A stretch of DNA of 57,115 bases, filler included, from Dugesia japonica (taxonomy: Eukaryota): the NCBI GenBank assembly GCA_001938525.1. It is 6 parts of 6 records of this genome, joined end to end, with 100 filler letters (N's around TTAATTAATTAA, not from the genome) between each part and the next. Parts side by side here need not be neighbours in the genome. Positions count along the whole stretch, not along the records: positions 20,135 to 28,933 come from MQRL01626073.1; 5 more parts are not named here. One strand, written 5' to 3'. Position numbers and translations under genes: made by a program. Of this stretch, positions 2,280 to 53,253 are shown in pieces. Numbering within the stretch: position 1 is the stretch's first letter; every line of letters starts with the position of its first letter. The notes below the pieces were generated by a model. The model worked only from the letters and a program-made list of their open reading frames with translations, was not told where the DNA came from and ran no database searches.

Positions 2280-3580
2280 TACTATTTTATTTTCAATATG
2301 AGAACAGTAATTTTTAAAATTAACATATTAAAATAAGAAAAGTAAGCCTTGTGTTTTCAATAAATCGTTTAAAATTTATTTAAATTTATTGTAAATTTAA
2401 TAGTACAATTGAAAGGTCACAAAAATGTATAAGAAAAATTTTAAAAAGTTGATAAAGAATCTAAGAAAAACAAATACTTGCCGTGTCAAGCATGGATGGA
2501 GACCGGAGAGGACTTACACGCACGCTTAACAGTACGTCGTTGGATATCAGAGGGAGAAACATTAAACAAGCGAGGAAGGAAAAGACTTCAAAAAATTACA
2601 GAAATTCATTTAGGTTATTTTGTCGAAAAAATCGAAAGAAACAGCCGAATTCCATTAACTGATTTCATTGTTGTATTTTAAGAAAAATTTAACGTTTCTA
2701 TTTCATAAACAGTAATATCAAAACATCTAGATTCTCTCTGTTATTTGCTGAAATACGCAAAGTTTGAACCTGAAAAGCGAAACTCCATGAGAACAAACAA
2801 AAGCAAAAAGAGTTCGTTGAATGTCATTTGGAATTTCAAGCTCAAAATAAACCTATTTTGTACATGGATGAAACGAACTTAAATTTTCATATTTCAAGAA
2901 CACGGTGCAGAAAATTGAATGGAACAAGATGCACTATTTTAGCAGCTGTCTCAGAAGATGATAATATTGATATAATAGACTGCATAAGCACGATCGGAAT
3001 TATTCATTATGAAATAAGAAGAGGTTCGTTACACAAAGAAAATGCAAATGCATAGATGGAAACCTGCCTTCATCAAGCAATGGTTAAACATGGTGAGCCA
3101 GTTGTTATGGTAATTGATAATACACCTTATCACAGTAAAATTGAAGAAATTTTTGCAGGAACAGGAATTTCGTGAAAACAGGATAATCAGACTTGAACCC
3201 TATAGTCCAATGTTTAACCCCATTGAAAATGTTTGGCCTGTTGTAAGGAGTTATATTAAAAGAGAACTCTCAAAAAAGTTGTCAAGTATTCTTAATAGCA
3301 GAAGCGAATTAACAATCAGAAAACAGAGAGTAAGAGCCTTAGAAAGCTTTATTGAAGAAGATCTGCAGACAATTACACCAACCATATGAGCCAATCTCAT
3401 CGCAAGTATTCAAAGAAAATTCACTGTGGTTCTTAACTTAGAAAACAAACAATATTAATGAATTTATGTAAAATATTTAATATTAAATTCATTGTTTTAA
3501 ATCGAAATAAAAATTCACATTTTAAAATTTCTTATTCTTATATTAAAGTTTACTATTCTCATTTTGAAAATAAAATGGTA
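2280..3580 (+). mobile_element. Full-length but decayed IS630-Tc1-mariner DNA transposon (DDxE, spacing about 35)
   Basis: TIRs TACTATTTTATTTTCAATATGAGAACAGTAA / TTACTATTCTCATTTTGAAAATAAAATGGTA with TA on both sides. Fragmented transposase at about 2478-3450: ILYMDETN, VMVIDNTPYH, LEPYSPMFNPIENVW, with frameshifts and stops. Confidence 0.9.
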
Positions 3581-7018: not shown

Positions 7019-7223
7019 NNNNNNNNNNNNNNNNNNNNNNNNNNNNNNNNNNNNNNNNNNNNNNNNNNNNNNNNNNNNNNNNNNNNNNNNNNNNNNNNNN
7101 NNNNNNNNNNNNNNNNNNNNNNNNNNNNNNNNNNNNNNNNNNNNNATTATGTAATCCACATATAAAATAACTTTATAAAGTAAAAAGGAAATTACGTCGA
7201 AGTAATACTCAGAATTTTCGTAA

Positions 7224-7442
7224 GACAATTGCAATTATTGCGAGAATAATTGTTGGTCGTAACCATTGATCGTTTTTCAGAAATGATTAAAATAAAAGCT
7301 TCGATCAAAAATTGTTTTTTTTTTTGGTTTTTTGATAATAATTCTATATTTCAACTTTGTCTTCGTCAGGAATTTAAAAGTCGAAATATAGAATTATTAT
7401 TAAAATACCAAAAAAACAAATTTTTATCGAAGCTTTTATTTC
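7224..7442 (-). mobile_element. Palindromic Penelope-like/retrozyme-like element, copy 1
   Basis: 11-bp TSD AATTTTCGTAA (7213-7223 and 7443-7453). Inverted arms. Homologous to copies at 27.8-28.0, 30.8, 31.9 and 32.8 kb. Contains a hammerhead motif. Confidence 0.75.
7340..7374 (-). ncRNA. Minimal type I hammerhead ribozyme
   Basis: Minus strand AATTC-CTGACGA-A-GAC-AAA-GTT-GAAA-T-ATA-GAATT: stem I, conserved core, stem II with a G-U pair, palindromic AUAU stem III, AUA triplet. Confidence 0.75.
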
Positions 7443-7825
7443 AATTTTCGTAAAAGTCAATATTAAAATAAAGGTAATTTGAGAAGCATAGAAAATTTTT
7501 TTTTATTGATTGTTACAATTTATTAATTTTCTTCAAAAAATGTTTTTCCTTAAATAAGTCTGTTAAGAATATAATAAAAAACATTTAAATAAAAATGATA
7601 AAATAAATAAAATCAATTTTTTAATTTTACCAATAATTATCGGAAATAAAACTGTATTAAAAAGTGTAAAAATGAAATTTGTATTTGATTATTTTAAAAT
7701 TTAAATATTTGCCTATCAAAAATTTGTTTAAATTTTAAATTTATAAAAAGATTTAAAAAAGATTTAAATTAAAATTCTTTAAGTGTTAATTGTTTTCATT
7801 AAATTAGTAAATATAGAAATAAATT

Positions 7826-8455
7826 ATGGATTACGAAGAGAATCTACCGGTAAATAAATTTAAACATCCGGAAATTTGTTCAAAATCTTCAGCAAAAAAA
7901 GATTTCCTACGACCAAGAGATGAAAGAATTGATTTTGAAAAAAAAGTTAATACTTCACAGATCATTCCAAGAATTAATGGAAAAGCACGAGTTGGAGAAT
8001 ATTGTGAGATCTGTGAATATGCTGCTACTGATTCTGCAAATTATCTTGATCATATTAACGGTAAACAACATCAAAAAAATATGAATATGTCAATGAGAAT
8101 CCAACGGTCTACTGTAGAAGAAGTTCAAATCAGGTTTGACGCGAATCTATTAAAAAAATCAGGCAAATATCGAAATCTAACAGTTCAAGAAGTGGTAGAT
8201 ATTTTAAAGAAAAAGAATCTAAAGAAAGATCCTAAACACAATTGTAATAGTGATGAAGAGAAAGGCAATACTGACGTTCCGAATTGCGATATTGAAGAAG
8301 AGGAAGAAAAGATTAAGGATAAAAGACGAGAAGAAAGAAAAGCAGGGAAAAAGAGACGATTTGAACCAATTGAAAATAATGATTTAGACGATGATGATGG
8401 AATGACAGCAATTATGGGTATTCAAGGATTTGGTGGAAGTAAAAAAGGTCATTGA
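7826..8455 (+). CDS. ZMAT2: Zinc finger matrin-type protein 2 (Snu23 homologue, spliceosomal B complex)
   Basis: Hallmark segments LRPRDERIDFE, YCEICEYAATDSANYLDHINGKQHQKNMNMSMRIQRSTVEEVQIRF and C-terminal MTAIMGIQGFGGSKK. Confidence 0.93.
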   Translation: MDYEENLPVNKFKHPEICSKSSAKKDFLRPRDERIDFEKKVNTSQIIPRINGKARVGEYCEICEYAATDSANYLDHINGKQHQKNMNMSMRIQRSTVEEVQIRFDANLLKKSGKYRNLTVQEVVDILKKKNLKKDPKHNCNSDEEKGNTDVPNCDIEEEEEKIKDKRREERKAGKKRRFEPIENNDLDDDDGMTAIMGIQGFGGSKKGH

Positions 8456-10654: not shown

Positions 10655-11100
10655 TATTTCACCCAACTTTGAAAGAGTTACGCTCAACATTATTCATCAA
10701 ACATTTTTCACTTGACATCTTTCACTCTACATTTTTCACCCAACTTTGAAGGGTTAAATTTACCCTGAGTGAATGNNNNNNNNNNNNNNNNNNNNNNNNN
10801 NNNNNNNNNNNNNNNNNNNNNNNNNNNNNNNNNNNNNNNNNNNNNNNNNNNNNNNNNNNNNNNNNNNNNNNNNNNNNNNNNNNNNNNNNNNNNNNNNNNN
10901 NNNNNNNNNNNNNNNNNNNNNNNNNNNNNNNNNNNNNNNNNNNNNNNNNNNNNNNNNNNNNNNNNNNNNNNNNNNNNNNNNNNNNNNNNNNNNNNNNNNN
11001 NNNNNNNGGGTTACGCTCAACATTATTCACCCAACTTTGAAGGGTTACGCTCTACATTTTTCACCCAACTTTGAAGGGTTAAGTTTACCCTGAGTGAATG
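10655..11100. repeat. 34-bp tandem repeat CACCCAACTTTGAAGGGTTACGCTC(A/T)ACATT(A/T)TT
   Basis: Units visible on both sides of the N gap; period 11028 to 11062. Confidence 0.85.
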
Positions 11101-17689: not shown

Positions 17690-18910
17690 AGTAGGGGGAT
17701 AGTAGCGCACTGGCACAATTTTTAAAGCAGTTATCGCGCACCCCCCTTTCCTCCCGGGTGGGGGCTCGGAAACACATTACTATTGTGCTAGAATTTTTGT
17801 GCCAGTATTTTTTTCCTAAGATTTTTGGGATCAAAAAAGTTTTGATCGGATCAATTTTTGTTGATCGGATCAAATTTTTTTGATCGGATCAATTTTTTGA
17901 TGCTGGGGATGTGTGTATTTTTAAATTTTAAAATTTGTGTGTATTTGGGTTGAATGTGTGAGAATTTCGGATTTTAAGGGCTTTAATTTAATTGGTTGAT
18001 ATTTGTAAGTAGTATAAGTGTGTTAAAAATTATTTTCGGGGGGAGGAGAGTGGTATGGGTAGAAAGAGAATTAATTATCAGATTTTTTAAGATTTATTTG
18101 AAATTTTTCTGCGGGATGGTTATGACGTCATAATCTTTTGAAATCTTTATTTGGACTAAAAATGCTGTATTTTGCTTCAATTGATGAATTATTAGAAAGT
18201 AATGGTATTTTTGAGTAGTTTTTGAGTATTTTTGAGTGGGAAGGGTTGTTTTTAATATTTTTGAACCGGAAAGAGGAATGTCTTGATATTTGTGAAAAAG
18301 GTTTTGACGGGAAATTCAAAAATTTATTTTTGCATGCGAAATTAAATTTTTTTTGAGCGGTCTAGATATCTATGCATGATACGTGCAGTCTTGATATTTC
18401 GTAAGATACTATTACAAGATATCGGGCAGTCTCTATATTATTACAAGATATCGAGCAGTCTTGATAATTTACAAGGTATGGAGAGTCTTGATATTTTGCA
18501 TGGGATGGGCCAGACTTGATATTTTGCAAGGGATGGGGTAATCAAAATTCCTAGTCATGTGATTTTCTGTGTATTTGTGTTGCATCTGAGTTGCATCTGA
18601 GTTGCATGCTTATTGCATTTATTAAAATTCCTATGCAGTGTTGCTGTATTGCATTCATATTGCATCCATATTGCAATAATTATTAAAACATTGAGACAGT
18701 CTTGATACTTTTTGATATTATTACAAGATATTGGGCAGTCTAAAATTAACATGATAAAATATTCAAAGAGGGGAGTCTTTGTGATATTTACATGATAAAA
18801 TATTCAAATAAAAATCTTCAAAGAGTGAAGTCTTTGTGATATTAACATGTTAAAATATATCAATTAAAAATAACCAGAGGGGAGTCTTTGTGATATTTAC
18901 ATGATAAAAA
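17690..18910. repeat. GC-rich AGTAG-starting terminus followed by minisatellites (probable Polinton TIR region)
   Basis: AGTAGGGGGATAG… start; TTTTGATCGGATCAA repeats at 17835-17900; about 29-bp TTACAAGATATCGGGCAGTCTTGATA repeats at 18360-18745; GTCTTTGTGATATT(T/A)ACATG three times at 18775-18905. Confidence 0.55.
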
Positions 18911-26800: not shown

Positions 26801-27850
26801 TTTTATTGGTTTCAGCTCTAATGATTGTTTCGTAAAAAATAACGAGATTTTCTGGTTTTAAATTTATTTCTGGTTTGAAGCTCTGATTTATTTAAATTTA
26901 AATTGAATACTGATGAGTAAAATAAACTCATAAGTCTGCTCATAATAAATTTGAAATATTATTGAAATTAAATTATCTTCGAAATTATTTTTTTAAAATT
27001 TACGTTAGAATCTTGAGAATTTTTTCAAGTTAAATTTTGACTACGTTAAATAATGAATATATTTTAAGAACATAGTATTTTAAAAGTTATTTTTAGATTG
27101 TTGCATATAATTCATCTTTTCAATTCTGTATTATTTTAATAGTGTAATTGTCATTCATATAAAGGACAATTATTGATTTCTCTTTAAAACAAGAAGTAAT
27201 CAGTTGAACATTACATACAGATGATAATTTATTAAAACTTTTAAGATAAATGTAGATAATTTTGCACACATGTTATGAATGAATTAATAGTATTCAATAC
27301 GCTATTATTTTTATGTAATCTGATTTTTAAAAAAAATTTTTTTTAGATACGGGNACAATAAGTATAAACAAAAGGCATACTGTTACAGCAATTTGGATCA
27401 TCTGGATGTGATATTTAGTGCAGAATTATTGATAAATATTCGTGATAATTCTCAAACAAATGAAAACTTTGATTGCTTGTTATATTTACGCCGTGATTAA
27501 ATATCAAAAACATTTCATAAAGAAATTTCATCATTTGTAACCATCGAAAATAAGAAGCATTAAATAGAAAAATAAAAGCTAAAGGAAATAGAATTTTTGT
27601 CTTATTATATAAAAGTAGATTATTTTCCATTTGATAAGGATATTTTTATTAAGGGTTGTCAAAACTTATAACGAAATCCAAATTATTTTTTTAAATTAGA
27701 TGAACTTAGAACAGAATTTGATGTAAAATAATTTGAAACGTAATAGTACATACATAAAATAATTAGAGTAGAACATAATTGGAGTTAAAATAAATTAAAA
27801 TTCATTTAAATTAAAAGCTTCGATCAAAATTTTTATTGGTTTTTTGATAA

Positions 27851-27887
27851 TAATTCTAATTTTCGACTTTGTCTTCGTCAGGAATTG
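27851..27887 (-). ncRNA. Minimal type I hammerhead ribozyme
   Basis: Minus strand CAATTC-CTGACGA-A-GAC-AAA-GTC-GAAA-A-TTA-GAATTA. Confidence 0.75.
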
Positions 27888-27900
27888 ACTTTTCAAAAGT

Positions 27901-27937
27901 TAATTCCTGACGAAGACAAAGTCGAAAATTAGAATTA
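27901..27937 (+). ncRNA. Minimal type I hammerhead ribozyme
   Basis: TAATTC-CTGACGA-A-GAC-AAA-GTC-GAAA-A-TTA-GAATTA: 6-bp stem I, intact core, 3-bp stem II, palindromic AAUU stem III. Confidence 0.8.
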
Positions 27938-28149
27938 TTATCAAAAACCAGAAAAACAAATTTTTATCAAAGCTTTTATTTAAAATTAATTCTGAAAAAC
28001 GATCAATGGTTACGTCCAACAATGATTCTCGCAATAATTGCAATTGTAAAATAAAAAGTAAAAAGACTCGACATTAATATTAAAGATTTATTTAAGAATA
28101 ATATATTTTGTATTATTTAAACAAAATTGACTGTTTAAATAATCACTAT

Positions 28150-28933
28150 TTTCTAACTTCCATCTCCATTGAAACTAAACTCGTTTTATTATTCAACTCG
28201 TCTTAACTTTGGCTTATCTAGAAAATTAAGTAAAACTTAAGAACTTAATAATCGTATTCGGACCTTCATATNTGTCTCCACGTTTATGAATATTACGAGG
28301 TTTATTTTTACAAAAACATTTTCACCAACTAAAAATTGCCTTTGAACTCTTGTATCTGATCCATACCTTCTTAATTCCTAATATTTCTACTTTTGCTTCA
28401 TTAACTACTTGTTCATAATTAGCAGGTGTATTCCTCGACAATCCATGTAATAGCACTTTTCTTCCATACAGAACTTCAAATGGAGATCTCTTTATAGCGC
28501 TTTGATATGTCATTAATAGAAAATTCAATCTTTGGAATGTATTTATCCTATGTAAAACTGTTCTTATCAATATTCATTGAAGGGACTAATATATCTCTAA
28601 CTGTTCTAATTACTCGATCAGCTAAACCGTTGGCTTGATGTTGGTAAGGTCATGTAAATTCTTGTGTAATTTTAAATCTTCCACACAACTCGTTCATTTT
28701 GCTGTCTTCAAAAACTCTTCCCCTATCAGATAAGATTGATTTTGGTTTTCCAAATTGGTAAATCTAATTGTTCTTTATAGCACCTGAAAATACTGTTTCA
28801 TCTTGTTTACTAATTGGTATCAGTCGGACTAGTTTTCTAAATCTATCAATAATAACAAGCAAGTACTTTTGTTTAGATTTTTCTCAGAAAAATAGGCCAC
28901 ATCTATTACAATTTGTTCTAATGCCCCAAATTC
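28150..28933 (-). mobile_element. Degenerate Ty3/Gypsy integrase
   Basis: EQIVIDVAYF…KYLLVIIDRF…FGKPKSILSDRG…PYQHQANGLADRVIRT…SPFEVLYGR…YEGP, with stops and frameshifts. Confidence 0.9.
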
Positions 28934-30761
28934 NNNNNNNNNNNNNNNNNNNNNNNNNNNNNNNNNNNNNNNNNNNNTTAATTAATTAANNNNNNNNNNN
29001 NNNNNNNNNNNNNNNNNNNNNNNNNNNNNNNNNATATATATATATATATATACTTATATATTGAATAAAAAATTATATTGTGTTCAGGTTCAAGATAATA
29101 TTTTTTGTGTTAAGGCATTTTTAAAAATATATATATTAAAAATACTTATAAAATACAGAATTAATAAATTCTATTGAATTTAGAATATAAAAAGAAATAT
29201 ACGTTTTGAAGAAGATTTAAACGAAACTTAAATGGTATTAATATATTGAGATTTATAAAAGAAGATAAAAAAATTTATATGAAATTAAAATAGATATTAT
29301 ATATTACCCGAATTAAGATATGTTTATACAAAAGAAAGTTAAAATTCAAATATATTGAAAGAAGGTGTTAATGTCAAAATAAAAATGAGTATCTTTAATA
29401 TTCTATGTTAAAAATTAATGCAATTACAGGTTTTTTTTAGTTTAAAGTATTTCAAAAGTAATTAATATTTACACAAAACACTCTCTCGTAGCTTGATAGA
29501 CCGTTTGTAATTAATTTTGGCTTTTTTAATTTACTATAATGGATATTGTTGCTGTGTTTTTAAATCGATTTAAATATTCTATTTTTTCATCTAATTCAGG
29601 TTCGACTCCGGAGTTTTCAGTGAACCGCTCCGAGTTCGAACCGGGTTCAACCCTGCAAATACATCATTAAATAATCAATATAAATATTAATGTCAGAGAA
29701 AGTAGCGGCAAAGAATTTTTTTTTAAAAAAATTGATACTACTGATTATCTACTTTATCATCTCTGGTTATACATTTCTTCAAANATATTTTTTAAATGAA
29801 ATCAATAAACTAAATTTACTAATTACCGAACCAAGTCATTTTATTCATGTCAGGATTAATGTGTAAATAGTAATGAAGAATATTTTTTTGTAATTAAATG
29901 AAATAATTTTTAAATAAGATAAAAATGAGTTTGTTTTATTATTCAGAATATTTTGGAAATTTTGAAAGTGAGCAGTAAGATTATTAAACTGTAAACATAT
30001 TGTTATTGATTAAATTTTGTAAATTTTTATTGTAACATCGTTGATTTTCATAATTTAAAATCCTCGAGAGTGATCAGATTATACAAGTTATACTGTGTAT
30101 ATTATTTATTTATTGATAATAAAATTGAATTTGATAATACAGTTGTTATGAATTTTGTTGTATGAGTTTTGCGAAGTACTAGTATTTAGGGTTGGAATTT
30201 AATTGTGAGAAGTGAAGGAGAACTCAATTTTTGTATTATAAATAAATCATTGGATATGAATTTTTCGTCTTTCGATGTTGAAGAATACCTTTTTATAGCT
30301 TACAGAAATATAAATGTGACAAACTTTTACAATTTACAAAATAGTTTTAAAAAAATAAGTAGAGAACTCGAAAAGGTACACATTTGATCAATATTTATTT
30401 GTAAGCAATTCGTGATCAATGGTTGCACATTGCTTTTATCAATTGCTTTCCCAATAATCGTATCGAATGGTTTTGGTTCAAAATAGTCATGTGAGATCAA
30501 TTTACTGGTTAGAAAATAACGGAGTTTGTCCAATCTTTGTAAATTTTAAAAATTTCAATTCTATTTCGTATATTTATGAAATTTTAGTTATATTTTTTAA
30601 ATAAACGCAAAAAATGCTATTTTATATATTTATTCTAAATAATATACACTGTATAATTTGGTCACTCTTGAAGGCTTTACACTATGAAAATTGACAAATA
30701 AATAGTAAAATAAATTGTAAAATGCTACTAATAAAATTCAAAAATAATATAAATCATTTTA

Positions 30762-30933
30762 AAATTGCAATTATTGCGAGAATAATTGCTGAACATAACC
30801 CATTGATCGTTTTAAAGAATTCATTTAAAAAAAAAGTTTCGATCAAAATTTTTTTTTTGGTTTTTAAAAATAATTTTAAAAAAAGTCAATTCCTGACGAA
30901 GACAAAGTCGAAATTTAGAATTATTTTCAAAAA
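30762..30933. mobile_element. Palindromic element, copy 3, with one hammerhead (30888-30922, +)
   Basis: Starts AATTGCAATTATTGCGAGAATAATTG; contains AATTC-CTGACGA-AGACAAAGTC-GAAA-T-TTA-GAATT; cut by a gap. Confidence 0.75.
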
Positions 30934-31872: not shown

Positions 31873-31963
31873 AAAGTCGAATTACCAATAAGAATACCAA
31901 TATAATGAAATCTCAAATACGATCAATGGCTAAGTCCAACAATTCTTGCAATAATTGTAATTG
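31873..31963 (+). repeat. Degenerate arm of the palindromic element family (copy 4)
   Basis: ACGATCAATGGCTAAGTCCAACAATTCTTGCAATAATTGTAATTGT matches the family end. Confidence 0.6.
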
Positions 31964-32791
31964 TAATAACTATTCATTTAATAATATTTATTAAAATATT
32001 CTAATAAATTCTAAAATGATTTTTTTTCTATATAAATATTTGAAAGTTTTATTGCCAAATTTTAGAAATTAGATATGTACATAAAAATAGCGTGAGGTTG
32101 CTTGAAAATATTCTTTGAGATATATTTCTTTAATCAGAGAAAGCAAAATACGAATTTTTTAAATATTCAGCTAATTAATCAAATTTTAAATAAATTGTAA
32201 ACTTTTCCAATCAATAAAAACAAATAAAATTAATTATTTACAATGCAGTAAAAAATATAAATAAAAAAAGAAAAATTATCTATTAAAACAAGAATATATT
32301 AAGGAATTGGTTATAAAATTGAAATTTTCCAAAATTAGACACCTCTATAAAAGTAGCATATCCAAAGGACGAGTAATAATTCCATTGAAATATTTTGTGA
32401 CACCATATTATAAACTAGATAATTTTTGTATAATATCGCAATAATAATAAGTTATAATTAACCTATAAACTAAACATTTACTTAATAATAGACCAATACT
32501 TTGATTTTTAGCATCATGGTAAAAGTTTGATATACTAGGAATACCGCTAACCAAAAAAATTTGGTAACCACTGCACTAATGGTAGATGAAACAATTCTAC
32601 GTGAAAATATAATTGATGAATATATGACTAATTTTAAACAATTAGAATATACATAATTTATTTGTTTAACTAAAAATATATAAATAAATGTTTTTAATAT
32701 TTACTTAAAGTTATTTTTAAATGAAATGAAATTATTCAAACCATAAATTTTATTATTGTTATTTATTTATTACTTATTATTAGTATTTATA

Positions 32792-32906
32792 ATTATTTTA
32801 TCAAAATATAAAAAACAACATTTTGATCGAAGCTTTTAATTTAATCAAATCTCAGATACGATCAGTGGTTAAGTCCAACAATTATTCTCGCAATAATTGT
32901 TATTGT
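32792..32906 (+). repeat. Arm of the palindromic element family (copy 5), no ribozyme core
   Basis: TTTTGATCGAAGCTTTTA…ACGATCAGTGGTTAAGTCCAACAATTATTCTCGCAATAATTG. Confidence 0.7.
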
Positions 32907-35900
32907 ATAAAAATTGAGTTTTATAGTAAATGATGCCCACTGAATTATATTTGAANNNNNNNNNNNNNNNNAAAGAAAATTTAATAAAATTAATTAGACA
33001 TAGTTTATTTGGTATTCTGAAAAATCAACAGAAGAAATACACAAAACAAGTGATATCTTTTTCGTCAATTCAATATGACATTAAAATCGAAATAAATCAT
33101 TTTAATAAATCATTTGCAGTCAAAGAAAAATCTATTAATTCAAAAGATTACATTTCAAACTAGAAATTAGAAAATCAACTACAAAAGAAACTACAAAAAT
33201 GCCAGAAATTAACATTGAAAGAATTAATGTATTCTGTTGAATTCTGTCACTAATAAAATGCAAACTCAAAAAAAGAAATATCACCACTCATATAAATAAC
33301 ATAACATTTCAAGTTCAATTAGTTAATATATTAACAAAAATTTCCATAACAAAAAACCAAATTGACAAAAAACTGTTTCCATCAAGTAGAGATTGAAGTT
33401 AAAAGTACGTGATATTTTCCGTTTATGATTACACTGGTAGCAGTGATGATTCATTGATTTATCGTACTAGGTCAACTGAATTTATACATATTTCGATTTT
33501 TTAGAAATTTCTGATTTACTGAGATAAATTTGTGAATTGATAACTTTCTAATCTGACACATTAGATGCATTATCACTGACCAATTCAAATTGATTTCGAA
33601 TGTTAAATTAATTTTTAATCATAGATAACTGATAGTTGCAACAGGAAAAATAGAAAATATTTATTTTAATATCATAAAATCATGAGACGCTTCGAATTCC
33701 AGAGATGGAAAATAAATGATTTTCTGTCAAAATATATTTTCTTTTTTAATAATGCTAATTATTTTGAAATTTTTGTTTAAATTAATATTAATTGCTTAAT
33801 AATGTTAAGAATATTAAAATATATTGACAAAACTTACGTAAACAAAATTATTTACCAATAAATATCCGTAAAATTATAAATAAATTTCTGATTCTTAAAT
33901 TTGTGAGAAATAATATTAATAATTGCAACTTTTTCAAATTAAAAAAAAGGATCTTATAATGTATAATGAATACTGTAATATTATTTTTAATGTATGGAAC
34001 AACGACACCAATCAAAATGGTGTTGTAAAAAAATCGATTGAAGAAGACTTTGTACTGATTACTTATTCTCAAATTGATATTTATTTCAAATACAAGAATA
34101 GAAAACTTCATAAAACCATATTTGCTATGTCAACAATCAAATAAGAGTTGACAAAAATATTTTTCTATAATTATTTCTCAGTTTTTTCTTACATGNNNNN
34201 NNNNNNNNNNNNNNNNNNNNNNNNNNNNNNNNNNNNNNNNNNNNNNNNNNNNNNNNNNNNNNNNNNNNNNNNNNNNNNNNNNNNNNNNNNNNNNNNNNNN
34301 NNNNNNNNNNNNNNNNNNNNNNNNNNNNNNNNNNNNNNNNNNNNNNNNNNNNNNNNNNNNNNNNNNNNNNNNNNNNNNNNNNNNNNNNNNNNNNNNNNNN
34401 NNNNNNNNNNNNNNNNNNNNNNNNNNNNNNNNNNNNNNNNNNNNNNNNNNNTTATTATAATTATGAGCAGTTAATTAGAAATGTCATAATAAAATACACA
34501 AGGAATACAAAATAAATAAATCAACAACTTCATCATGCATCACAATTAACTACACAAATTAAATTATGAGATGAAAGAATTTTTCTACGAATAACCTTGT
34601 CGTAAGATATTTTATTTATGTCAATGCATTAAAAGCTGTATATAAAACACATTATCAACAAGTGTACCAAATATTTTCCCTGTATGATTTGTGTCATAAT
34701 TATAGATTTAATTTCGCTACATTAATCAAAGTAACATTGAATTAGATAAATTACAATCGAAATGGCATTTTAATGTTTTTAATATACAGTTAATGAGGAA
34801 GTTTCATGTTTATTTTAATCAATCCAGTTTTTGATAATAAAATTCATAAAATTCCAATGACATTCCATTAGTTAAATAAAAATTCCACAAAATTAAATAA
34901 ATAAAAACAATAAAAACAACACCGAAATATTAATAATTAAAAAAAATTATCATAATAAATCAATAAAATCTCACCTAATAAGGACATTCCTGGAATTAGA
35001 AAAAAAACAAAGTTAATAATTCTATTAGTAGAAGATTGTTACAAGTATAAATATATAAAATGAATCAATGTGAAACAATGAACTTTATGGTAATGATTTG
35101 TTTGTATTTGTACTGCTCAATAATTAGTCAATAATGAATACAGACGTATCGTTTATAAGTAATTTTAAGTGCTACAATAAGTTACAACAAATTAACAAAT
35201 AAATAACAGTTACTTTTCTACTTATATGACGTCAAATAAATATTGGATATAAAAATTTTCATAATGGAATTTATTTTTTTTAAAATTTCAATTAAATCAT
35301 GCAGTCCATATTCAATTTTTTTGTTGAAATCATTCTGATTTNAGTAAAGTTTCTTTATAAGAAAATTACATGGGAATGAAAGGAAAAATGGATTTGAAAA
35401 AACCAAAGTAAAATTAACAAGAAAATTTTTAAATCATTTAATTCAGTCATATTCAAACGTTTTGGCAACTAAAAGCTATTAAAAACATGCAGAAATACGT
35501 TATGGTTGCAGGCCGCACAATTTTATAAACTTTAAACAAGATTTAAACATGCAGAATTTCTAAATATTAGATTGATCAAAAAGTTCGCTCGGTTTTGAGA
35601 TTAAAATTTAAAACTTATTTTTCTGAAGTGATTATTAACAATCAATTATTTTTTTCTTTATTTCATAATTTTATTTAAACAAGTAATAGCTGATTTTAAT
35701 ATTTAGTAAATAAACAGCTACAAAACTTTCGAAGATAAGGAGCATATTTACCATATTATTCTTTTTTACTTTTGTAAAACGAAAAAATGCAGAATGCAGA
35801 AAAATATTGACAATAGTAAACATTAATGAGCGCATTTCTGCTTGTAATTTGCTCATGAATGTACGGAACGAGGAAGATCCATTTTAANNNNNNNNNNNNN

Positions 35901-36103: not shown

Positions 36104-37536
36104 TACTATTTTCAAGAAAATTTCCTAGCATTACATTATAAATAAATTAATATTTATTTATATATTATAATATATGTATTATATATATTTATTTATATAT
36201 GTGACTGTTATTTGTGTGACGTAACTTACATCGGCGAAACTTTCTGCCATCTCTGTAAGAGAATTCAGAAACAACGTCGACTGAATTGTCCATGTATTCT
36301 TGTTGAACAAAATATTAATGGCAGATCAAATACAACTATCAATAGCTAAAATTTTGTGTAGAAACTTAAAAATTTATTGTAAAAGTGTTATGTGTGAAAC
36401 ATTGATGATTAGATTTCAAGATGCAAAAATTAATCTTTTTATGTTTTTATATTTTATTGGAATAATTACGAAATTAATTACACAATATAAACTTTAAAAA
36501 TCTTTCCAATTTATTCGGGCCCGTGCTGACACATATACGGATTTATCATTCCATTTTATGTTGTAAACAACACGTTTTTTTGTTAATTTATAATATATAA
36601 ATATAAATAAATATATTATAAAATAGCGTTCTTATTTATATTTAAAACAATATTCTATTGTATTTTTCGCTTCTTAAATAAAATTTGTATGTTTGTTTTA
36701 CACTTTAATAAAAGAACTATTTCTATGCAAGTTCTTTTAACGTCGAAAGTTTTTTTTTTAATATAACAAAGTTTTAACAAAACTTTCAGTATATTATTGC
36801 AGCTTAATCTACTTCAGATATGACATTGTGACGTTACTTGCTTACATTATCAGTAGCTAAATACTATTTATTTTGGTTGATAAAATTAGATACGTTAAAA
36901 CTAACTTAAATATTTTNATTAAATATTAAAATTTATTTTAGTTTTACTAATAAGTTTAATTAACAATTACCATTATTGTCAGATTAATTACTGGACTAAA
37001 TCATTGACGGCATTTTTAAAATTTCAATAAATTAAACAAATAAATTTTACTTTAATGAATTTTAATTGGATAATTAGAAAACACAGGCACTGTGTTAAAA
37101 AATAATCTGTTTATGTTTTGTGTTAGATAATCATCAGTAAATAGTTTTATATACGTTTCTGTAAATAAATTTATTTTAATTTTAACTTTTAACTATAACT
37201 GTATATATAAATACAAAAAAAAATAATTAATGTAATTTATAATTTAATTAAATTAATAATAATTAAAATAAATTATCCAATTGAAATTCAATAAAATAAA
37301 ATAAATTCTAAAATTATTTCTATTTCTCTAATAACTAATAAGTAAATCTCTATNNNNNNNNNNNNNNNNNNNNNNNNNNNNNNNNNNNNNNNNNNNNNNN
37401 NNNNNNNNNNNTTAATTTATTAAAAGTTTTTTTAAATTTATATTTCCATAAAAATTAAAATACAAAATTTTAAATAATTTAAAATAAAATTTGAAGAATT
37501 AAAATTAAAAATATACTAAGATAATTAAACAATATA

Positions 37537-39004: not shown

Positions 39005-41300
39005 AGTAGGTAGACAGTAAGACAATTCAGCACTACCTCCCCCCGGGGAAAGAAAATTTTAGTGGTGTAAGATTTAGTGGGACGATTAAAATAGACAATG
39101 TGTGCATGTGATTATGTAACAGTGATGTAAGAATTATACTTGTATTTAGTGGGGCGATTAACATTCGTAATAGATGTGCATATAATTACATAATTGTGAC
39201 AGTATTCCTACAATTTAATAGGTCGATATGTGTGTTGGTTATGTAATGATTACATAATTCTAACGTAATTGTAGTTTTTGTTTTAATTGATAGATTTTTA
39301 TGATTTTTTGTTTAAATAAAGTGAAATTATTGATTTTCGTTTAAACTAAGTGAAATGAATTATTTCTTGTTTAAATTAAGTGATTTTCATGATTTATTTA
39401 AATTAAGTAAAATTAATAATTTTTTGTTTAAATTAAATAAAACTAATGGTTTTTGTATAAATTAAAAATGGATTTTGTTTAACTATTACTTATAGATATA
39501 TGTATAACTATAATAAATTACGATCTATTTCATTGAAATTTTATATATTTATAATATTTTATTGAAATTTTGTTATACTTGTATCATACAAGTTGTATGA
39601 AAATTACAGTTTACTCATAAAATTTATCTATAGGGTTTATTGAAATTGCTATATTATTTACAAAATTATGTTTACTTATGAAATTTTTGTGCATGAATGA
39701 TTAAAATTTGTATATTAATGATAAAATTTAAGTAGTTTTGTAAATGATTTAATGAAAATAATACATATGAAAATGAAATTAGACAATATTTTTTATTGAA
39801 ACGAGTGAATAAAATGAGTGCATGAGATGAATTAAATTGATTGAATGTTTTCAGTCAGTTGATTTACTGTAATTGGTGAATGAAGTAATTTGCTAATGAA
39901 GTAGAGTGAATTGACTAAGAAAGTGGATAATGCATATTTAATGAATATAATGTACTAAATACATTAAGTGATCAGAGTTGTATAAACTGATTGAATGAAT
40001 TAAGCAGATTAAATGTATGAATCTATTAATTGTTTATATACTTCTACTAATTTTTAGAAATATTTCCCTGATTTCTTATAATTGTTAAATAATTTCTATA
40101 TACTTCTAGTAAATTTATGTTAAATTTCATTGATATCTAGTAATTGTAGTGATAAATTATAATTTTAACGTGTTGACTTTTAAATTTTATGGGATATATG
40201 TTACCTTTTATATATTGGTTTTGATTTGTTGTATGAGAGAATGTAATTTTAGTGTAATATGTTACATTTTTATGTAATGAAGTGTAATTTTAGTGTGATG
40301 GATTATAATTTTCACATGCTGCATGTTAATGTTTATATGTTGACTATTTATTTTTACATGTTGAGTATTAATCTTTATGTGTTGTCTTAGAATTTTATGT
40401 GATGAAATGTAATTTTAGTGTAATGCATTACAATTTTGTATAATTGCTTGTAATTTTAGTGTGATGGATTATAATTCTTATATGTTGGCTTTGGGTTTTT
40501 ACATGCTAACTATTAATTTTTATGTGATGGCATAGAAATTTTAAATGCTGATGTATATATTGCTTGTGATGAAATGTCATTTTTTCATTTTGAATGATGT
40601 ATTTTCAAAAATGAGTCCTATATTTTTCATGTTGTTGTCTCTATTTTATATGATGAATCCGATATTTCGAAGTTTAATATCAACAATAATAGTTGTCACA
40701 AAATACTAGTGTACGCATCATGCAATAATAGTCATACTGATCAATTGGCTAACAAAGTTGTTTGTTGAACCAGAGCGAGTATTATTGAAGTTTGAATCCG
40801 AACAAAAGGAATGCAAGCATGCACTCGAACTAAGGGTCACGAGTCATCAACTTAGACTTTTTATGTGTTGGCTTAGAAGTTTTATGTGTAGACTTAGAAT
40901 TTTGTGTGATGAAATGCAATTTTAGTGCTATGGATTATAATTTCTGTGTTGGTTAGAATGTTTATATGTTGGCTTTAAATTTTTACTTAAGACATTTTAA
41001 GTACTAAATTTTATGTGTGGATTTATAATTTTGTGTGCTTGAATACAATTTTAGCGTGATGGGCAATAATATTAACGTACTGACTTCGAATTTTGACATA
41101 TTGTCTATTAATTTTTGCATGTTAGTATATCAATTTTATGCGTTGGCTTAGACATTTGTATATGATGTTACAATTTAGTGTAATGGATTAAAATTTTAAT
41201 ATGTTTAATTGAAATTGTATTGTGATGATTTTTTATTTTCATATAGCAACTTACAATTTTATGTCCATGACTTATAGAAATTTGATCATATTTGCATGAT
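39005..41300. repeat. AGTAGGTAGA-starting terminus plus TG-skewed degenerate satellite
   Basis: Start resembles 13082. Recurrent AATTTTAGTGTGATGGATTATAATT units at 40.1-41.2 kb. Confidence 0.55.
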
Positions 41301-41940: not shown

Positions 41941-43727
41941 CATTGGGTTGGTGCATAATGTTTTGCCGAATTTTAAAGAAAAATTACAATCATAATTTTT
42001 ATTTTATATTCAAACAATTATTAATTATATGTTCACAATTGTTTTTAATAATCATTTGCCATCTCTGAGGTAGTTTCAAAAATCCATAATCGTAGAATTT
42101 TTTGGATATGAATAAGAAAAACTAAGGAATTGTTGTTTTACAAGCTTCAAAAGACTCCAGCTGTTTTTCATTAAGATAGCTCTGCATCGATCGAAACAAA
42201 TGATAATCGAAAGGTGCTATATCTAGAAAATATGGAAGGTTTATAAGCAAATCCAATCCGAAGTCATTCAATTATGAAGAGCCCGAAAAGACTTATGTGG
42301 TACTTATGAACTATCATCTTATTTCTATTGTTTAAACCTGAACGTTTTTCTTCAAGAATTACTTTTAGAACATCTAATTGTGCACAGTAGNNNNNNNNNN
42401 NNNNNNNNNNNNNNNNNNNNNNNNNNNNNNNNNNNNNNNNNNNNNNNNNNNNNNNNNAAACACAACATTATCTACTTTTGGTCTAATTCTGCTTTTGGAG
42501 ATGTTACTGATGTTTCAACTTCTTTTCTCCAATGCCGTTTTTGTTGTACATTATTATACATAGTCCATTTTCATGTACTTTTTTAATTCGTTTCAAAACG
42601 GACTCATTTTTGCTGCAATTCAAAAAGAAATGCAAGCAAAAAAAAAANTGCNNNCAATTACCGTATATACTCGCATATAAACCGATCCCACAAATTTGGT
42701 TAAAAACATGTCCAAAATAGATGACCCGCGTATAAGCCGACCTATCTTTTTTAAGTTCGGAAAATTTGGCCACTCCAGTAATGCAAGCGTTTTTTGCTCT
42801 AGGCATTTCTTCTAAATAATTTTTACTTTTCTTCCATTCCATTAATTGCTTTTCATTGTCATCAAATTCACGAACTGCTGCGCAATTGTTGTTAGCTATT
42901 GCAAAATTAACAACTTTTGGTTTAAAAGCAACATCATATGATGACTGCTTCTGTTTAATGGCACCAAAAAGCATTNNNNNNNNNNNNNNNNNNNNNNNNN
43001 NNNNNNNNNNNNNNNNNNNNNNNNNNNNNNNNNNNNNNNNNNNNNNNATATTAATTTACAAAATATCAATTAGTAAATGACACATTACATTTATTATCAA
43101 TTAATTATTGAATCATAGTTATTTTAATTAAAAGTAGGTTCGCATATAAACCGACCCATCAACTTTGAAAAAAAAATTATTGAAAAGTTCTCGGCCTATA
43201 CGCGAGTATATACAGTATGTTTTTTTATTGATAATCTTTCTAACTGTGGTATGGTCTAGACATAAGATAACTCAAATTTCCAATATGATAAGATAAATAG
43301 TGTTTATTTATCAATCAGTGCCTTAATTTTGTCATTATGAACCCTAGATGACATCCAAAAGAAATTCGTTTTAAGAGGCTAATATCTCCATCAAGAAATT
43401 TTGTAAACCATATTCGAATATTCCGTTCTTTAACTGCATCCTTTCTGCGAAGATAGCGTATTTATCTAATCGTTTACGCAGAATTGTTTCCTCTTTTAAA
43501 GCAATGAAGCATAATAGATCGAAAAATCAAATCTTAATCCACCATTTCTAAAATTCATAAAAATTGTAACTTAAAACAAATTTAATATTTTATTAAAGTA
43601 ATATTAATTTTGGATGTATTTTCTATTAGTTTAAATATAGATTTTTGTTGCATGATAAATTACATTCTTTTCATAGTCATGAAATATAATGCTAAAAACC
43701 GACAAAACATTATGCACCAACCCAATA
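41941..43727 (-). mobile_element. Mariner element with both TIRs, decayed, interrupted by a pogo-like element
   Basis: TIRs ATTGGGTTGGTGCATAATGTTTTGCCGA / CCGACAAAACATTATGCACCAACCCAAT; transposase remnants KWTMYNNVQQKRHW and PYFLDIAPFDYHLFRSMQSYL. Confidence 0.9.
42661..43215 (-). mobile_element. Internally deleted pogo/Tc2-like element retaining a Brinker-type DNA-binding domain
   Basis: TIRs CCGTATATACTCGCATATAAACCGA / TCGGCCTATACGCGAGTATATACAG with TA TSD. ORF SYDVAFKPKVVNFAIANNNCAAVREFDDNEKQLMEWKK resembles the POGK-like BrkDBD. Confidence 0.85.
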
Positions 43728-47452: not shown

Positions 47453-48299
47453 ATTTTTAATAAATTGTTTCAAGTATTTTGTCTTATTTGTGTAGGGATA
47501 GGATTTTTTTGTGCGTTTTGTATATATATATATATATATATTTAAATAACCAAAGAACAATGGCAATCTTTTAATAAAAACTTTTAAACGCCATTTCAAT
47601 ATATACTTCTGCACTACATGTTTCGACAGCATAACTGTCATCTTCGGATACAATAATAATTCTTTTTTTGAAAATTCTTTNNNNNNNNNNNNNNNNNNNN
47701 NNNNNNNNNNNNNNNNNNNNNNNNTTAATTAATTAANNNNNNNNNNNNNNNNNNNNNNNNNNNNNNNNNNNNNNNNNNNNTATTTATTTATTCTCTCTCA
47801 TATTTATAGTTTCCTTTTCCTCTATTTAACCATTGCTTCAAATTTCAATTTTTTTTACATTTCCTTTTGAGTTACAGCTATTCTATACTCGTTCTAGCCC
47901 AAAAAATTACTGGGGTCTCCGAAAATAATTCTGACCCGGAATTTCCTCAATAAAATTCCGTACTTCACTCATTTAATCGTCTGAGTCTCCATATCTATCA
48001 AATTTCTTTAAAATTCAACTTTACTGGTGATCATCGGTCCTGAAAGGGCCCTCAAGTAAGTTATCTATAAATATCCAAAACAGAAAAGAGAGAAGATATA
48101 AGCAAATTGTTAGCATACATAAACACACCATACCATGTTAGCATTAAAGACTCATTTAATAAAATAATTGTCAAATCATAGTTCCTACATTCCAAATCAC
48201 TGTTTACTGTTAGATATCATAATATATTCTATTTGATCACAAAGAATTCCTGGATCGAACAAGAGAATTGTTGTCGAAGTATTTCTCTGCCGGGATACT

Positions 48300-49348
48300 C
48301 AAAATTGATAAACTACTCTGCCGGAGTATACATAATTGATAAATCGCGCTGCCGGGATTGTTGATTGGTAAACTGCTCAGCTGGTTTTGGTGCGTGTGAA
48401 TCATTTGATGAACACTCTGTCGGGGTTGGTTGGACTCGTATAATACTGTTTGGTTGGGCTTGATTGTTTGCTTGCAGGTGGTAATATAGGTTATTTACAC
48501 AGGGATGCAGTGTAGAGCTGCCACAAAAATAGTGTCATTCGAGGAGATTTATCGACCGCAGAATAGATTTTCGTCAGATTCTGAAAAAGGCCATCTGTTT
48601 GTAGGTTCGGGGGTTGGAATTTCTGGAATTCAAAGACTCGTGTTTCACCGTTGTTGAGCTCGTTGTGCTAAATAATTAATTTCCATCGCTATGGGTCTCT
48701 CTGATCGAAACTGATTAAGTCGGATTGGTTCGCCGGGCGGCTTCTTGGCGGCAACATTACTGGAATGGGTGTACTTTAGAGTTTTTCGTATTTACTCCTC
48801 AATTTTCCATACTCATTAGTCAGCTCNACATTCTCGATAATTAGGTTCTCATTTTCTTCTTTCATCTCTTGTTTCTTTTGGTTTAATCGTTCATTTTCCT
48901 GAATCAGATATTTGTTGCTATTTTCCAAGTTTTGGTTTATGATCATTATATCCTCGTGTGCTTCTTTCCATCGTTTACTCTCATGCTTCCAGCTTTCTTT
49001 ATCCCTTATCTCTTTTTGAATACGGTTGAAATGAATTTCTTGAGCATGCAGTCGAGAATTGTTATTTTACTCGATGGTTTTCTCTAACATCTTTGCCTTC
49101 TTTCGATTCTAGTTTAGTTCGGATTGTAATTCGTCAATTGTACTGCTCATTCGCTTTCTCTCTAATGACGTCTCTTTTTTAATCTCTTCTCGGTATTGTA
49201 ATTTAAAATATTTAATTCGGCCCTCTGCTTCATTGATTCGGTCCTTCTGACCCTCAATTATTTTTTCCAACGTTCGTTGCCTTTCTTGGGACTTTGTTAA
49301 TCTCTCTTTTAGTCGGTAAATTTGGTTTTCATAGAATTTTGCTGCCAT
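48300..49348 (-). pseudogene. Coiled-coil accessory ORF of the Gypsy element (decayed)
   Basis: MAAKFYENQIYRLKERL… stays in frame through isolated stops for about 190 aa of E/K/Q/N-rich heptads, then turns Pro-rich (STPIPVMLPPRSRP). Confidence 0.6.
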
Positions 49349-49816
49349 TTCCTGATAATTATAATAAGGTTTTCAAATTGATATTTTAGTGCTCGAAAGT
49401 TAATTCACGTATTTTACTTTTATAAGCTGAGCTAGTTTTAGTTTATTTGTTCATTTATTTTGTTTTATTATGCTTATAATTGTTGTGGTCATATATAATT
49501 TAATCAGCCGGGATGCTCTCTTGGTTCTTTTAGATTAACAATCAATTGGGTTTCGCTAGGGTTTATTACTTGGATAATAACATTTGACTTCGACTTTTTC
49601 TTCAGATCTGCATTCAAAATTACTTCTTGTTTACTTCGTGTTACTGCACTCTTCCTCATAACATACTTCAACGTTACTCAAAATTTATTCTACTCGGCTT
49701 CATCAATCGTGTTCGGCTCCTGTGATCCATAATTTTGGTCATACTATTATTATTACTAGATACTCTAATATTACATTTCGAGTGTTTCAAGCTATTTACA
49801 CAATTTTCACTTCTCT

Positions 49817-51790
49817 CTACCACACTTGTTTGCCGGCCCTTTTCCCTGGGTTACTGGTCCTCATCATCGCCTTTGGCGGATGTATATATTTATCGCTTAA
49901 TTCCAACAACTCATGTCGGACCTTTGGTCTCGAATATTGTCCTTTCTTTGCCTTTATACACAAAATTATCGTAATTATTAGTACCATCGTAGCTATTCCA
50001 CTGACTCCGCCAATAAGTCTGATTGGCCATCCTTCATTCGTTTCTGCTAATATAGTTGCTGTCGTCACTTCTTCTAATTGTTTCGCTTCTTCTGGTTTGA
50101 TTTTAAGTTCGTTGAACCTTGCTATCGTTTCAACTATTTGTCGAACATCTCATTTTTCTCTTGACTTAACGTTTTTGGATGAATGTCCGATTCTTCATTT
50201 CGGTTTATAACGGTTTTATGCTGAATTACCGCATTCAATTCCACTTTGTCAGTGGTACTAGTATTGGTACTGCTACTCATATTTCTCGTTGCTAGTGTCT
50301 TGAATGTCCTTACTTTTTTATCTCGTGTCGTCTTTGCTTTGCTTGTTGACTTGATTGTCACTGTTGATTCACTTTTTATTTTTATTGTCANTTCTAACGT
50401 ACTCAATGTTTGCTTTGTCATAATTCNTGACTTTGTAACTCTTTTTGTCGTTCTACCTGGTGGTAACTCCCACACTATCATATATTCCACTTAGAACCAT
50501 ATTCCATATCTCAGTTGTATCTCACGTTTTAATTCTCGTTGATTGTCATCCCATTTATATTTTGATAATAAATCGCCGTTTGCCCAATCTTTGAGTGATG
50601 AATAATGTCCGATTCTCATATTTTCTTTTCCTTCTCGTAACACTGATAAGTCTACAAACTTTCCTGCCCAATTTATTTGAATTCCGAGCGCATTTCCTCT
50701 GCTGTAAGGTATATTGCCTCGTTTTACATCGAATCATCTTCCTCGTTTTGTCCAAAGTACTTCATGCGCCCCTTCTGGTGTAAATCTCCATAAGTGTGAT
50801 ATATATGATAGATGTTTCTTTGCACAATATTTCTCATTTCTACCCCATGTTGGATTATTCTTTCTCGTATTGAGTATAAAATATGGAAATAATTTCTGTA
50901 GTAGATACTAAATATTCTACTGACTTCAAAAATTCCTGAATCTTTGTAGTAACTTGACGTCCACGATTCCTCTTGGTATGGATTTCCATATTCTCCTTCA
51001 TATTGTATTATGCGCATTTCTTGTGGTTTTTCTCCTGTTATCTCAAGATTCACTTGCCAAGATTCTCTAAATATCTTTACAGTCATTGAGTGTCCTTTAG
51101 CGTGTATACCGGGTTGTACCCATGTAAATGGAGGTCCATATTCTATTTCCGTATAATGACCTCCTTTTGTCATGACACGTCTCAATCCTTTTCTCGTTAT
51201 CGTCTGTATCTTTACCTCGAATCTCGTTATATATACTCGATGCTCCATCTAAACATCTTCATAATCATAGCATTCTTCTCCATTGCTTACACGTATCATT
51301 ATCACAATTATTATCATTTATATCCACAGATTTCCTGGTAATAATATTTGACTCTCTCCTCTGGGGTTTTCCATTTCAAATTCTCTTCTTTTATCTGCTT
51401 TTTCTCCTTTGAACGTGATCGTTATCAAAATCAATGACACTGTTATTGACGTTATTATAGTCGCTGATAGTATTAATGTCCAACATTTGTTATTCTCACT
51501 TTTACGTTGATTTGGTATTATTGCCGGACCCGTTGTTCACACACTCTCGCTCCAAATCACCTTTATCATTATTAACGCTATTAATAAATATAACCATTTA
51601 TCCATCATTTGACCGTTTTATTTGATCCACTTGTCGCTGTCATGGTCTCATTAAGTTCATATAATTTCGTTGACCGAATTCCAATTCTTGTGGGCCTCAC
51701 CATTACCACTATCGTTATTATACACATTGTAAATATTATTATTGGTATCGATGCGATACATGTCCACGCAATTTTCTCCCATCGTCTTCC
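49817..51790 (-). pseudogene. Env-position membrane protein region (several TM/signal segments, ectodomain, Thr-rich stalk, TM anchor)
   Basis: Hydrophobic segments near 51780, 51595, 51485 and 51330; ORFs 51248-50724, 50490-50134 (Thr/Ser/Lys-rich) and 50068-49817 (LIGGVSGIATMVLIITIILCIKAKK). Confidence 0.6.
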
Positions 51791-53253
51791 AAGTGACGGG
51801 TTTTTATCTAATATTACTGCCTTCTTTCTGTTCTTGTAGATTGATTCGTTTATAGCTGTTGTTATTTCTTCGTACTGTCATCTTTTATTACTGGTATCTC
51901 TGGTAGAGAGACCTTTTGTCCCCTTTCTTCTTCTTCTGCTTCCATTTTCTCAAGCTCTTTGCATTCTTTTTCCATTTCCTTTTGTTTCCATATTAGATAC
52001 CTTCCATCATGTTGCCATTTTTGTTGAATTTTTATCCATCTCGGTATCATATCTTCTGGATCCTCTTCGCACCCTTTTGTGATGTCCCACATATCATATT
52101 CGAACTCTTTGCACCATCTCGTTAGATACCACTGATCCATAATTTTGTCTGCTTCTTCCATTTCTTTTCTTTTTTAGATTCGACATTTCTCCGTATTTCG
52201 TAATTCTTCATATATTCTCCACCATTAAAGTATTAATGTCCAACATTTGTTATTCTCACTTTTACGTTGATTTGGTATTATTGCCGGACCCNTTGTTCAC
52301 ACACCCTCGCTCCAAATCACCTTTATCATTATTAANGCTTCCGGGTCCTCTTCGCAACTCTTGATAATATCTCTCTCATTTTCCGTATGTTAATCAGTTT
52401 CTCTGTCGCTCCATGTCGTCTCAAACCAATTTGATCTGTCGTTCAATGTTTTAATTACATATTCGTTATCCTTTTGAATCGTTTTGAGCTCGTCTGTCGC
52501 TTTTGGTTTTTTTGTTACAAGTTTTTCGTATTCGTTGTCACTGTCGTCGTCTTTCAATTTAATTTCTGTGCCTGTTTTACACCGATTCTGTACTTGTCGT
52601 CTTTTATTTCTGTTTATTCGACTTTTTCTCTTTCGTCTCTTTGCTCTTTGCTCCTGTCTTGAGTCATTGATACCTTCTTTTTGATCGCTTTCCTCTTTAT
52701 TTTGTTCAATTTCCAATTTCTTTATTAATTCTTGACATTATACTTTCAATGTTTGTAAGAAAAGTAGCGATCAATCTCAATTTTCAACTTCTGTAAACGT
52801 CTCGAATTGTTTCCACATTGTCATAATTTTCTGTCCGTCTTCCTCTGACGTGTTCAGCCTCTTAATTTTTGTGTCTGTATCTTCTATGAAATCCATCACA
52901 TCATCTCCTGCAAACGTGTTCTGCTTTATCTCTTGATTCTGGTTTGTTTTGTTCTCCGCTTTTGGTTGAACCGTCTTTTTCAATGCTGTTCTTTGTCTTT
53001 CTAGTGCGTCGAATGCTTTTTTACCTCATATAATCTCCTTAGCTGCTGTTTCTTTGTTCCATAATTGCTTTTCATTGTTTTTCATATAATTGTCCGTAAT
53101 TATTGACAGCAGATCACCTCTTACTTTTGAAAAGTCAACGTCCTCGTCGATTCGCGACTGCTACTTGATACGATAAGGTTGCTCTTCCATTTTGCGTTGT
53201 ACCTTATGTAGTTCTTTAACTGTTTTCTCCAATTGATGCCTCATTATCTCTGC

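Follow-up and report, generated by a model that had tools for sequence, protein, structure and literature searches.

What kind of mobile unit lies behind a near-palindrome with a hammerhead ribozyme motif on each strand, and how does it come to be inverted? The question is raised by a locus of Dugesia japonica at 27799-27991 of the 57,115-nucleotide stretch of DNA that we analysed as a whole (hereafter the window), an imperfect palindrome that matches itself inverted at 87%. In this copy, which we call A, the arms are 92% complementary over 62 nt and stand 1 nt apart. The first-pass annotation had taken the palindrome, with its right end at 28047, for the mobile element itself.

Outward from the hairpin centre at 27894, each arm holds one minimal type I hammerhead motif (Table 1), and in both arms of copy A the order is a 5-bp stem I (AAUUC/GAAUU), CUGACGA, an extra A, stem II (GAC-AAA-GUC), GAAA, AU, UA and stem I again. 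The core (CUGANGA, GAAA and UH) is present together with helices I and II, and, judged from its sequence, the motif has every feature of the minimal hammerhead (min-HHR) class. A min-HHR descriptor found three matches in the window (two in copy A and one at 7369 on the minus strand) and none in any of 60 order-3 Markov simulations. The motif reading and the descriptor matches thus uphold the annotated outward-pointing hammerhead on each strand of copy A, and the reading puts the predicted plus-strand cut after the same nucleotide, 27931. Among four arms of the window, helix I is invariant at all five pairs, the 3-pair helix II has G-C at 10.1-11.1 in three arms and G-U in one, and the extra A at 27914 (copy A numbering) is present in all four. 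An Rfam search of the whole window at E<=1 returned no hammerhead family, only four miRNA-hairpin matches below gathering score. Minimum free energy folds of the four isolated motifs gave no signal against shuffles (z from -0.64 to 0.07), as expected because the stems are so short, and cofolding of the motifs yielded swapped-stem dimers, which do not model the active dimer. When pairs were shuffled on the four arms, 245 of 500 shuffles reached the observed score, so the window alone gives no support.

The hallmarks that the available text of PMC4209133 gives for the min-HHRs of Penelope-like elements (PLEs) comprise an extra base after position 9, a G10.1-C11.1 pair and a palindromic 15.2-16.2. 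The present motif shares all three, with the extra base between 9 and 10.1 and a loopless 15.2-16.2, as well as the type I core and the 5-bp helix I. It differs in that helix II has only 3 bp and a 3-nt loop, and in that its two motifs lie 15 bp apart; dual min-HHR motifs on opposite strands are described there for Schistosoma mansoni, 100-700 bp apart. A term search of supplementary file 2 of PMC4209133 did not find the stem II string of the present family, and the S. mediterranea motif in that supplement, as far as it is given, belongs to a different family.

To see where the unit ends, we mapped on 27600-28270 the DNA contigs of four of the 24 listed runs, three from one species (X1, X3 and X4, which are therefore not independent) and one from a second organism (X9); the window may itself derive from X1 or X3, and a palindromic reference can bias contig placement. 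In each run the largest listed pile of loose contig ends stands at 27893 (494, 452, 519 and 133 contigs in X1, X3, X4 and X9, from the best 24 of 2000 loose ends), and a second pile at 28051 (219/222/212/65 contigs, likewise from the best 24 of 2000). It follows from these two piles that the unit spans 27895-28051, its 5′ end being fixed 12 nt before C3, and the right end annotated at 28047 has to be moved to about 28051. The loose ends at 27893 have no common upstream sequence, their letter agreement being 0.45-0.46 against 0.38-0.40 for random window sequence. Positions 27892/27893 are tied to varied positions of the tail-bearing arm (27939-28025) in 9 of the 15 listed joints (of 311), and 7 of the 12 listed joints with filler bases make such a tie. 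Two-armed copies other than A exist, since 11 of the 32 contig pieces listed span the centre, with 10-24 letters that differ, and depth in X1 is 37,801 at the palindrome centre against 375,748 at 27928 in the arm. The palindrome is therefore not the repeat unit, as the contig ends at its centre show: it is two one-armed units of about 157 nt joined head-to-head.

Table 1. Coordinates of the unit, its parts and its copies in the window
Feature	Position	Strand	Basis
Basic unit of about 157 nt: hammerhead at the fixed 5′ end, then A/T linker and tail; in copy A, the tail-bearing arm	27895-28051	+	Loose ends with diverse flanks at 27893/27895 and 28051, four DNA runs
Free arm of copy A, inverted and without tail (positions 1 to about 95 of the unit)	27799-27893	-	
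Single spacer base at the head-to-head junction	27894	.	Arm comparison and contig ends
Tail of about 60 nt, on one arm only in A and B, common to all six window copies	27992-28051	+	
Predicted 9-bp stem-loop in the tail, a very tentative candidate for an RT start or recognition site	28019-28041	+	
Hammerhead motif, tail-bearing arm of copy A (C3 27907, stem III AAUU 27927-27930, predicted cut after 27931)	27902-27936	+	
Hammerhead motif, free arm of copy A (C3 27881, stem III AAUU, predicted cut after 27857)	27852-27886	-	
Copy A: full palindrome with one-sided tail, two complete hammerheads	27799-28051		
Copy B: tail arm extending almost to the 5′ end, with a single hammerhead at 7340-7374 (stem III AUAU, C11.1 to U); 5′ truncation of the free arm lies within stem II	7224-7442	-	
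Copy C: tail arm cut short close to the cleavage site; free arm from the fixed 5′ end, at the same base as in A; hammerhead 30888-30922, plus strand (AUUU); runs into assembly gap	30756-30933	-	
Copy D: linker and tail only	32787-32913	+	
Copy E: tail only	31901-31966	+	
Copy F: degenerate tail fragment, 75% identity, E 1.4e-4	36955-37007	-	
11-bp direct repeat flanking copy B, candidate target-site duplication	7213-7223 and 7443-7453	+	Exact match

BLAST raises the earlier count of five copies or fragments in 57 kb to six, of which the sixth (37.0 kb) is weak. Two complete ribozyme motifs are found in one of the six (A), one each in B and C, and none in D, E and F. In both A and B an inverted copy adjoins the 5′ end and a tail is carried at one end; C has the inverted arm, its outer end lying in the gap. 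The arms are truncated independently, the free arm being short in B and the tail arm in C. The repeat that flanks copy B is of a length (at least 11 bp) reached by 16 of 1500 random position pairs, and the best flanking repeat of copy A (9 bp, all A/T) by 62 of 1500; a search for target-site duplications (TSDs) of D, E and F gave only 5-7 bp, which is chance level. A clear TSD is thus present in one of five testable copies, and no empty site was seen. The tail stem-loop has 12 predicted pairs, one of them with a two-sided change, and its covariation term is unfavourable (+1.05). Over 28006-28051 and the same stretch in B, D and E, differences fall largely on one codon position, with a 3-base deletion in E; an open frame from the ATG at 28006 resembles the pLTR/ORF overlap of PLEs and is possibly a remnant of the start of a parent ORF. 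When the 42-aa read-through of the tail was compared with longer proteins, neither of two candidates was a relative, which is weak evidence.

Between 28,000 and 31,000 contigs were placed per run in three runs and 5,827 in the fourth, and depth, some 10-50 in the flank on the left, rises to 10^5-10^6 within the element. Scaled to the depth of that flank, either with or without a 31-fold correction for overlap among short contigs, this corresponds to about 2,000-70,000 copies of the hammerhead and 5,000-190,000 of the tail, depth not being copy number; extrapolation from the density in the window gives 80,000-100,000. The high abundance suspected at the outset is thus confirmed, at roughly 10^3-10^5 copies from contig depth. 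Hammerhead depth is 0.33-0.39 of tail depth in the four runs, as expected from 5′ truncation of copies anchored at their 3′ ends.

Stem III differs between copies, as had been noted: arm comparison gives AAUU in both arms of A, AUAU in the 7.3-kb copy B and a non-palindromic AUUU in the 30.9-kb copy C, and four of five window arms are palindromic. In the contigs of the four DNA runs, the changes 27928 A>T and 27929 T>A are equally deep (depth ratio 0.996-1.007, share 46-54%, and the same at the mirror sites), and this pair comprises the only variants inside the motif among the 40 listed of 99. AAUU and AUAU are therefore exchanged by a linked double change in about half the depth, which keeps the palindrome needed for dimers, and the swap may be a single ancient subfamily split, that is, one event.

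The surroundings of the copies are AT-rich and gapped. Five identical 100-base joins, at 9282, 20035, 28934, 38434 and 47681, consist of 44 N, a 12-base stop-codon palindrome and 44 N; they are scaffolding spacers and not biology, and neighbouring blocks may not be truly adjacent. Directly to the right of copy A, 28100-28930 (minus strand) has decayed frames resembling, on visual inspection, the 3′ half of an LTR-retrotransposon integrase; the frame at 28325-28573 had no Pfam match, and depth of up to about 50,000 at 28083-28174 marks a separate repeat family. At 48000-57115 (minus strand) a block of higher GC content and strong strand skew, in which RVT_1, RNase H and integrase matches are fragmented, is a degenerate LTR-type retroelement, with other frames downstream at 49.8-54.6 kb. 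An uninterrupted ZMAT2/SNU23-like zinc-finger frame at 7823-8455 (plus strand) starts about 380 bp from copy B, its best named matches being animal ZMAT2-like proteins at 33-44% identity. A DDE_3 transposase fragment at 3114-3386 (plus strand, E 1.2e-4) and a Brinker-type DNA-binding domain at 42657-42974 (minus strand, E 7e-6) are likely DNA-transposon remnants. Degenerate families of minisatellite-like direct repeats lie at 39277-39465, 40157-41124, 18741-18904 and 10720-11100.

As for how the unit is copied, we think it fairly probable that this non-coding unit of about 157 nt is inserted into AT-rich DNA by a PLE enzyme and that the palindrome represents two separately primed cDNAs joined at their template 5′ ends. 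Of the two parts of this reading, PLE-type mobilisation is, in our estimate, highly probable, and the chances of a two-cDNA origin of the junction are about even. An RNA with its 5′ end just upstream of stem I would be bound uncleaved by a PLE RT/GIY-YIG protein; both target strands would be nicked and primed, one cDNA starting from the tail end (about 28051) and the other some 60 nt further in (about 27984-27991); each cDNA would run toward the RNA 5′ end and may stop early; and the cDNA ends would be joined, often with a few extra bases, which would give full palindromes such as A, lopsided ones such as B and C, and one-armed copies such as D to F. Candidates for what fixes the 5′ end are the start of transcription in a parent pLTR (which would make the unit run-off cDNA), a splice site and a start by polymerase III; in D. 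virilis an intron end at helix I is described in the available part of PMC4209133.

The PLE-type minimal hammerhead, the non-coding high-copy family and the PLE-like inverted anatomy proposed at first sight are all supported. PLE insertions are described with a pLTR and an adjacent inverted pLTR, a one-sided tail, an 8-10-bp TSD, a palindromic inverted junction and solo pLTRs (PMC3846280; also PMC8557442 and PMC2377424, as far as their available text goes). The Penelope/Poseidon insertions (Adineta vaga Pen2a/Pen3a, PMC3846280; scheme in PMC8557442) resemble the present copies in their head-to-head inverted repeat, palindromic junction, one-ended tail, similar TSD length and ORF-less solo forms. 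Unlike Pen2a/Pen3a as portrayed in the accessible part of PMC3846280, the present family has no ORF and no second direct pLTR, its unit is about 97 nt plus a tail of about 60 nt against 193-218 plus 31, and it is abundant with a fixed 5′ end whereas Pen2a/Pen3a are rare and variably truncated at theirs; its tail is also longer than the 30-40 nt reported. The one PLE studied in vitro, according to the available text of PMC11167929, is PAc (Anolis Poseidon), whose protein, a predicted dimer, nicks both strands and extends them, uses uncleaved RNA and has two internal RT starts that define the tail. Shared with PAc are a hammerhead roughly 60-120 nt upstream of two inferred RT starts, AT-rich flanks and a stem-loop near the 3′ end, here a predicted one; unlike in PAc (PMC11167929), the start points here are placed from two free arms and contig ends, and no enzyme was found. 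We also weighed against the PLE model that the loose-end agreement is a little above random and that a clear TSD is seen in so few copies.

The comparison of the arms bears on whether one template was used or two. Priming of two separate cDNAs accounts for copies A, B and C, for the joints between a fixed and a variable position and for the filler bases, and it is supported because the arms of A differ as much as arms of different copies do (9 of 72 columns, against 13-15% between arms of different copies), family-polymorphic sites 27965 and 27980 included. Three observations count against it, all of them predicted if a single nucleic-acid template of a PLE-type element folded back or primed itself and the hairpin centre was later deleted to give the lopsided copies (the model of PMC3846280, in its available text): the near-identity of the ribozyme region in A (1 of 53 differences near the centre, against 9 of 42 in the linker; p=0.004, or p=0.03 without the poly-A stretch), the closeness of the arms of B (6 of 69 differences, fewer than to other copies), and the concordance of stem III between arms within A and within B. 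The one-base hairpin tip of A and the other two-armed copies attested by the contigs that bridge the centre also favour fold-back. We nevertheless regard it as unlikely. The arms differ at family-polymorphic sites, and the variant at 27965, which the tail arm carries in A, is in the opposite arrangement in B, where the free arm carries it; of the two breakpoints, the central one is constant and its partner variable; contigs by the hundred stop at the centre, with unrelated DNA beyond it; and a symmetric tip is lacking in B and C.

If the unit were SINE-like and carried an RNA polymerase III promoter of its own, with a PLE mobilising it in trans, the fixed 5′ end would also be explained. A match to the B-box consensus indeed lies about 70 nt into the unit in four of the six covering arms (7298, 27817, 30836 and 32825), and an imperfect A-box-like stretch overlaps the ribozyme core by eye. 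Nevertheless, the B-box motif is common (20 matches in the window against 17.1 expected; about 2% per unit) and was noticed after the fact, a T variant that breaks it makes up about 46% of the depth at 27965 in X1, and runs of 4-5 T, which normally stop polymerase III, precede the tail. We therefore hold this explanation to be improbable.

The same must be said, more strongly, of the non-LTR retrozyme, made of head-to-tail repeats whose ribozyme-cut monomers circularise, a label that the annotation had offered and that we could not sustain. Like the non-LTR retrozymes described in the available parts of PMC7229834 and 10.64898/2026.07.22.740005, the latter of which argues that retrozymes derive from pLTRs, the present family is a short, non-coding, high-copy repeat with a type I hammerhead and is probably PLE-dependent. 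Its copies differ from them in being dispersed and inverted, its ribozyme is of the minimal PLE type and not of the canonical tandem type (PMC7229834), and its ends at 27895 and 28051 are off the cut site at 27931/27932. None of the six window copies is in direct head-to-tail tandem; one low-depth contig joint (28056 to 27803, depth 56 in X1 and 43 in X4) connects a tail, across 32 A/T-rich bases, with the outer end of the free arm that follows, and a few whole units may lie in tandem. On balance a retrozyme is very improbable.

A MITE or foldback DNA transposon with a hammerhead in its inverted repeats by chance would have the long inverted arms and could have the 11-bp flanking repeat, a length within the TSD range of Mutator-like elements, but it is hardly credible and already largely refuted: terminal inverted repeats at both element ends with a fixed-length TSD were not found; the termini are asymmetric, the 60-nt tail being on one side; depth is 3′-anchored; three of the six copies are one-armed; one end of the unit is the very centre of the palindrome; and the covariation in stem III is what RNA function would predict.

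Returning to mobilisation by a PLE enzyme, the element is not itself an autonomous PLE. Not one of 121 window frames of at least 62 aa matches GIY-YIG or a PLE-type RT in Pfam, the sole RVT_1 match among them lies in the LTR-type pol at 56.5 kb, and the unit holds no ORF. Exact patterns of ribozyme and tail gave no match in any of six scans of viral, metagenome and prokaryote contigs, collections that are not expected to hold an animal repeat. By analogy, the element would work like an ORF-less PLE terminal unit, with a tie to an autonomous PLE that we infer from that likeness.

What the ribozyme can do depends on whether the unit is single or part of a palindrome. The read-through transcript of copy A is predicted to form a hairpin of about 90 bp (-100.5 kcal/mol), and forcing the hammerhead fold brings it to -41.4, a cost of about 59 kcal/mol; in a single unit the forced hammerhead costs <3 kcal/mol (-14.4 vs -11.7). 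The annotation had proposed that a transcript of either strand contains a ribozyme; this is not supported, the motif pair being found in one of the six window copies and buried by the predicted hairpin there. In these folding models, ribozyme function on either strand of the full palindrome appears unlikely, and silencing of the ribozyme by the palindrome is more likely than its doubling. Because they lie on opposite strands, the two motifs cannot pair as a dimer within one RNA. In the proposed mechanism the ribozyme would be active only as an intermolecular dimer, through the palindromic stem III of one-armed transcripts.

A bolder idea is that stem III is a template-pairing signal like the retroviral dimer-initiation site, in which two RNAs on a PLE protein dimer would have both nicked strands primed at once and so give the inverted pLTR, with AAUU and AUAU as two orthogonal channels. 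As AAUU and AUAU cannot cross-pair, the arms of one insertion should always share stem III and assort freely at their other sites. This pattern is seen in both informative copies (chance about 0.25), and we consider the idea rather doubtful.

The min-HHR, pairs of min-HHRs on opposite strands, the inverted pLTR and the tail are already in print. In the literature that we covered, we found neither a description of this family nor one of an abundant solo unit whose 5′ end is fixed at the ribozyme and whose arms are truncated independently; repeat libraries and Lunse et al. (2017) may cover it, and prior cataloguing is quite possible. The role of the hammerhead in PLEs and the origin of the inverted pLTRs are stated to be open in the available text of PMC8557442, PMC11167929 and PMC3846280. 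Full palindromes, when read through, would be a dispersed source of hairpin RNA of about 90 bp. Because the family has short copies by the thousand, whose 5′ end is fixed and whose arms are truncated independently, and because stem III provides a natural 50:50 barcode, one genome alignment could separate fold-back from the priming of two templates, and the same family could be used to test whether dimerisation of the ribozyme picks the partner template.
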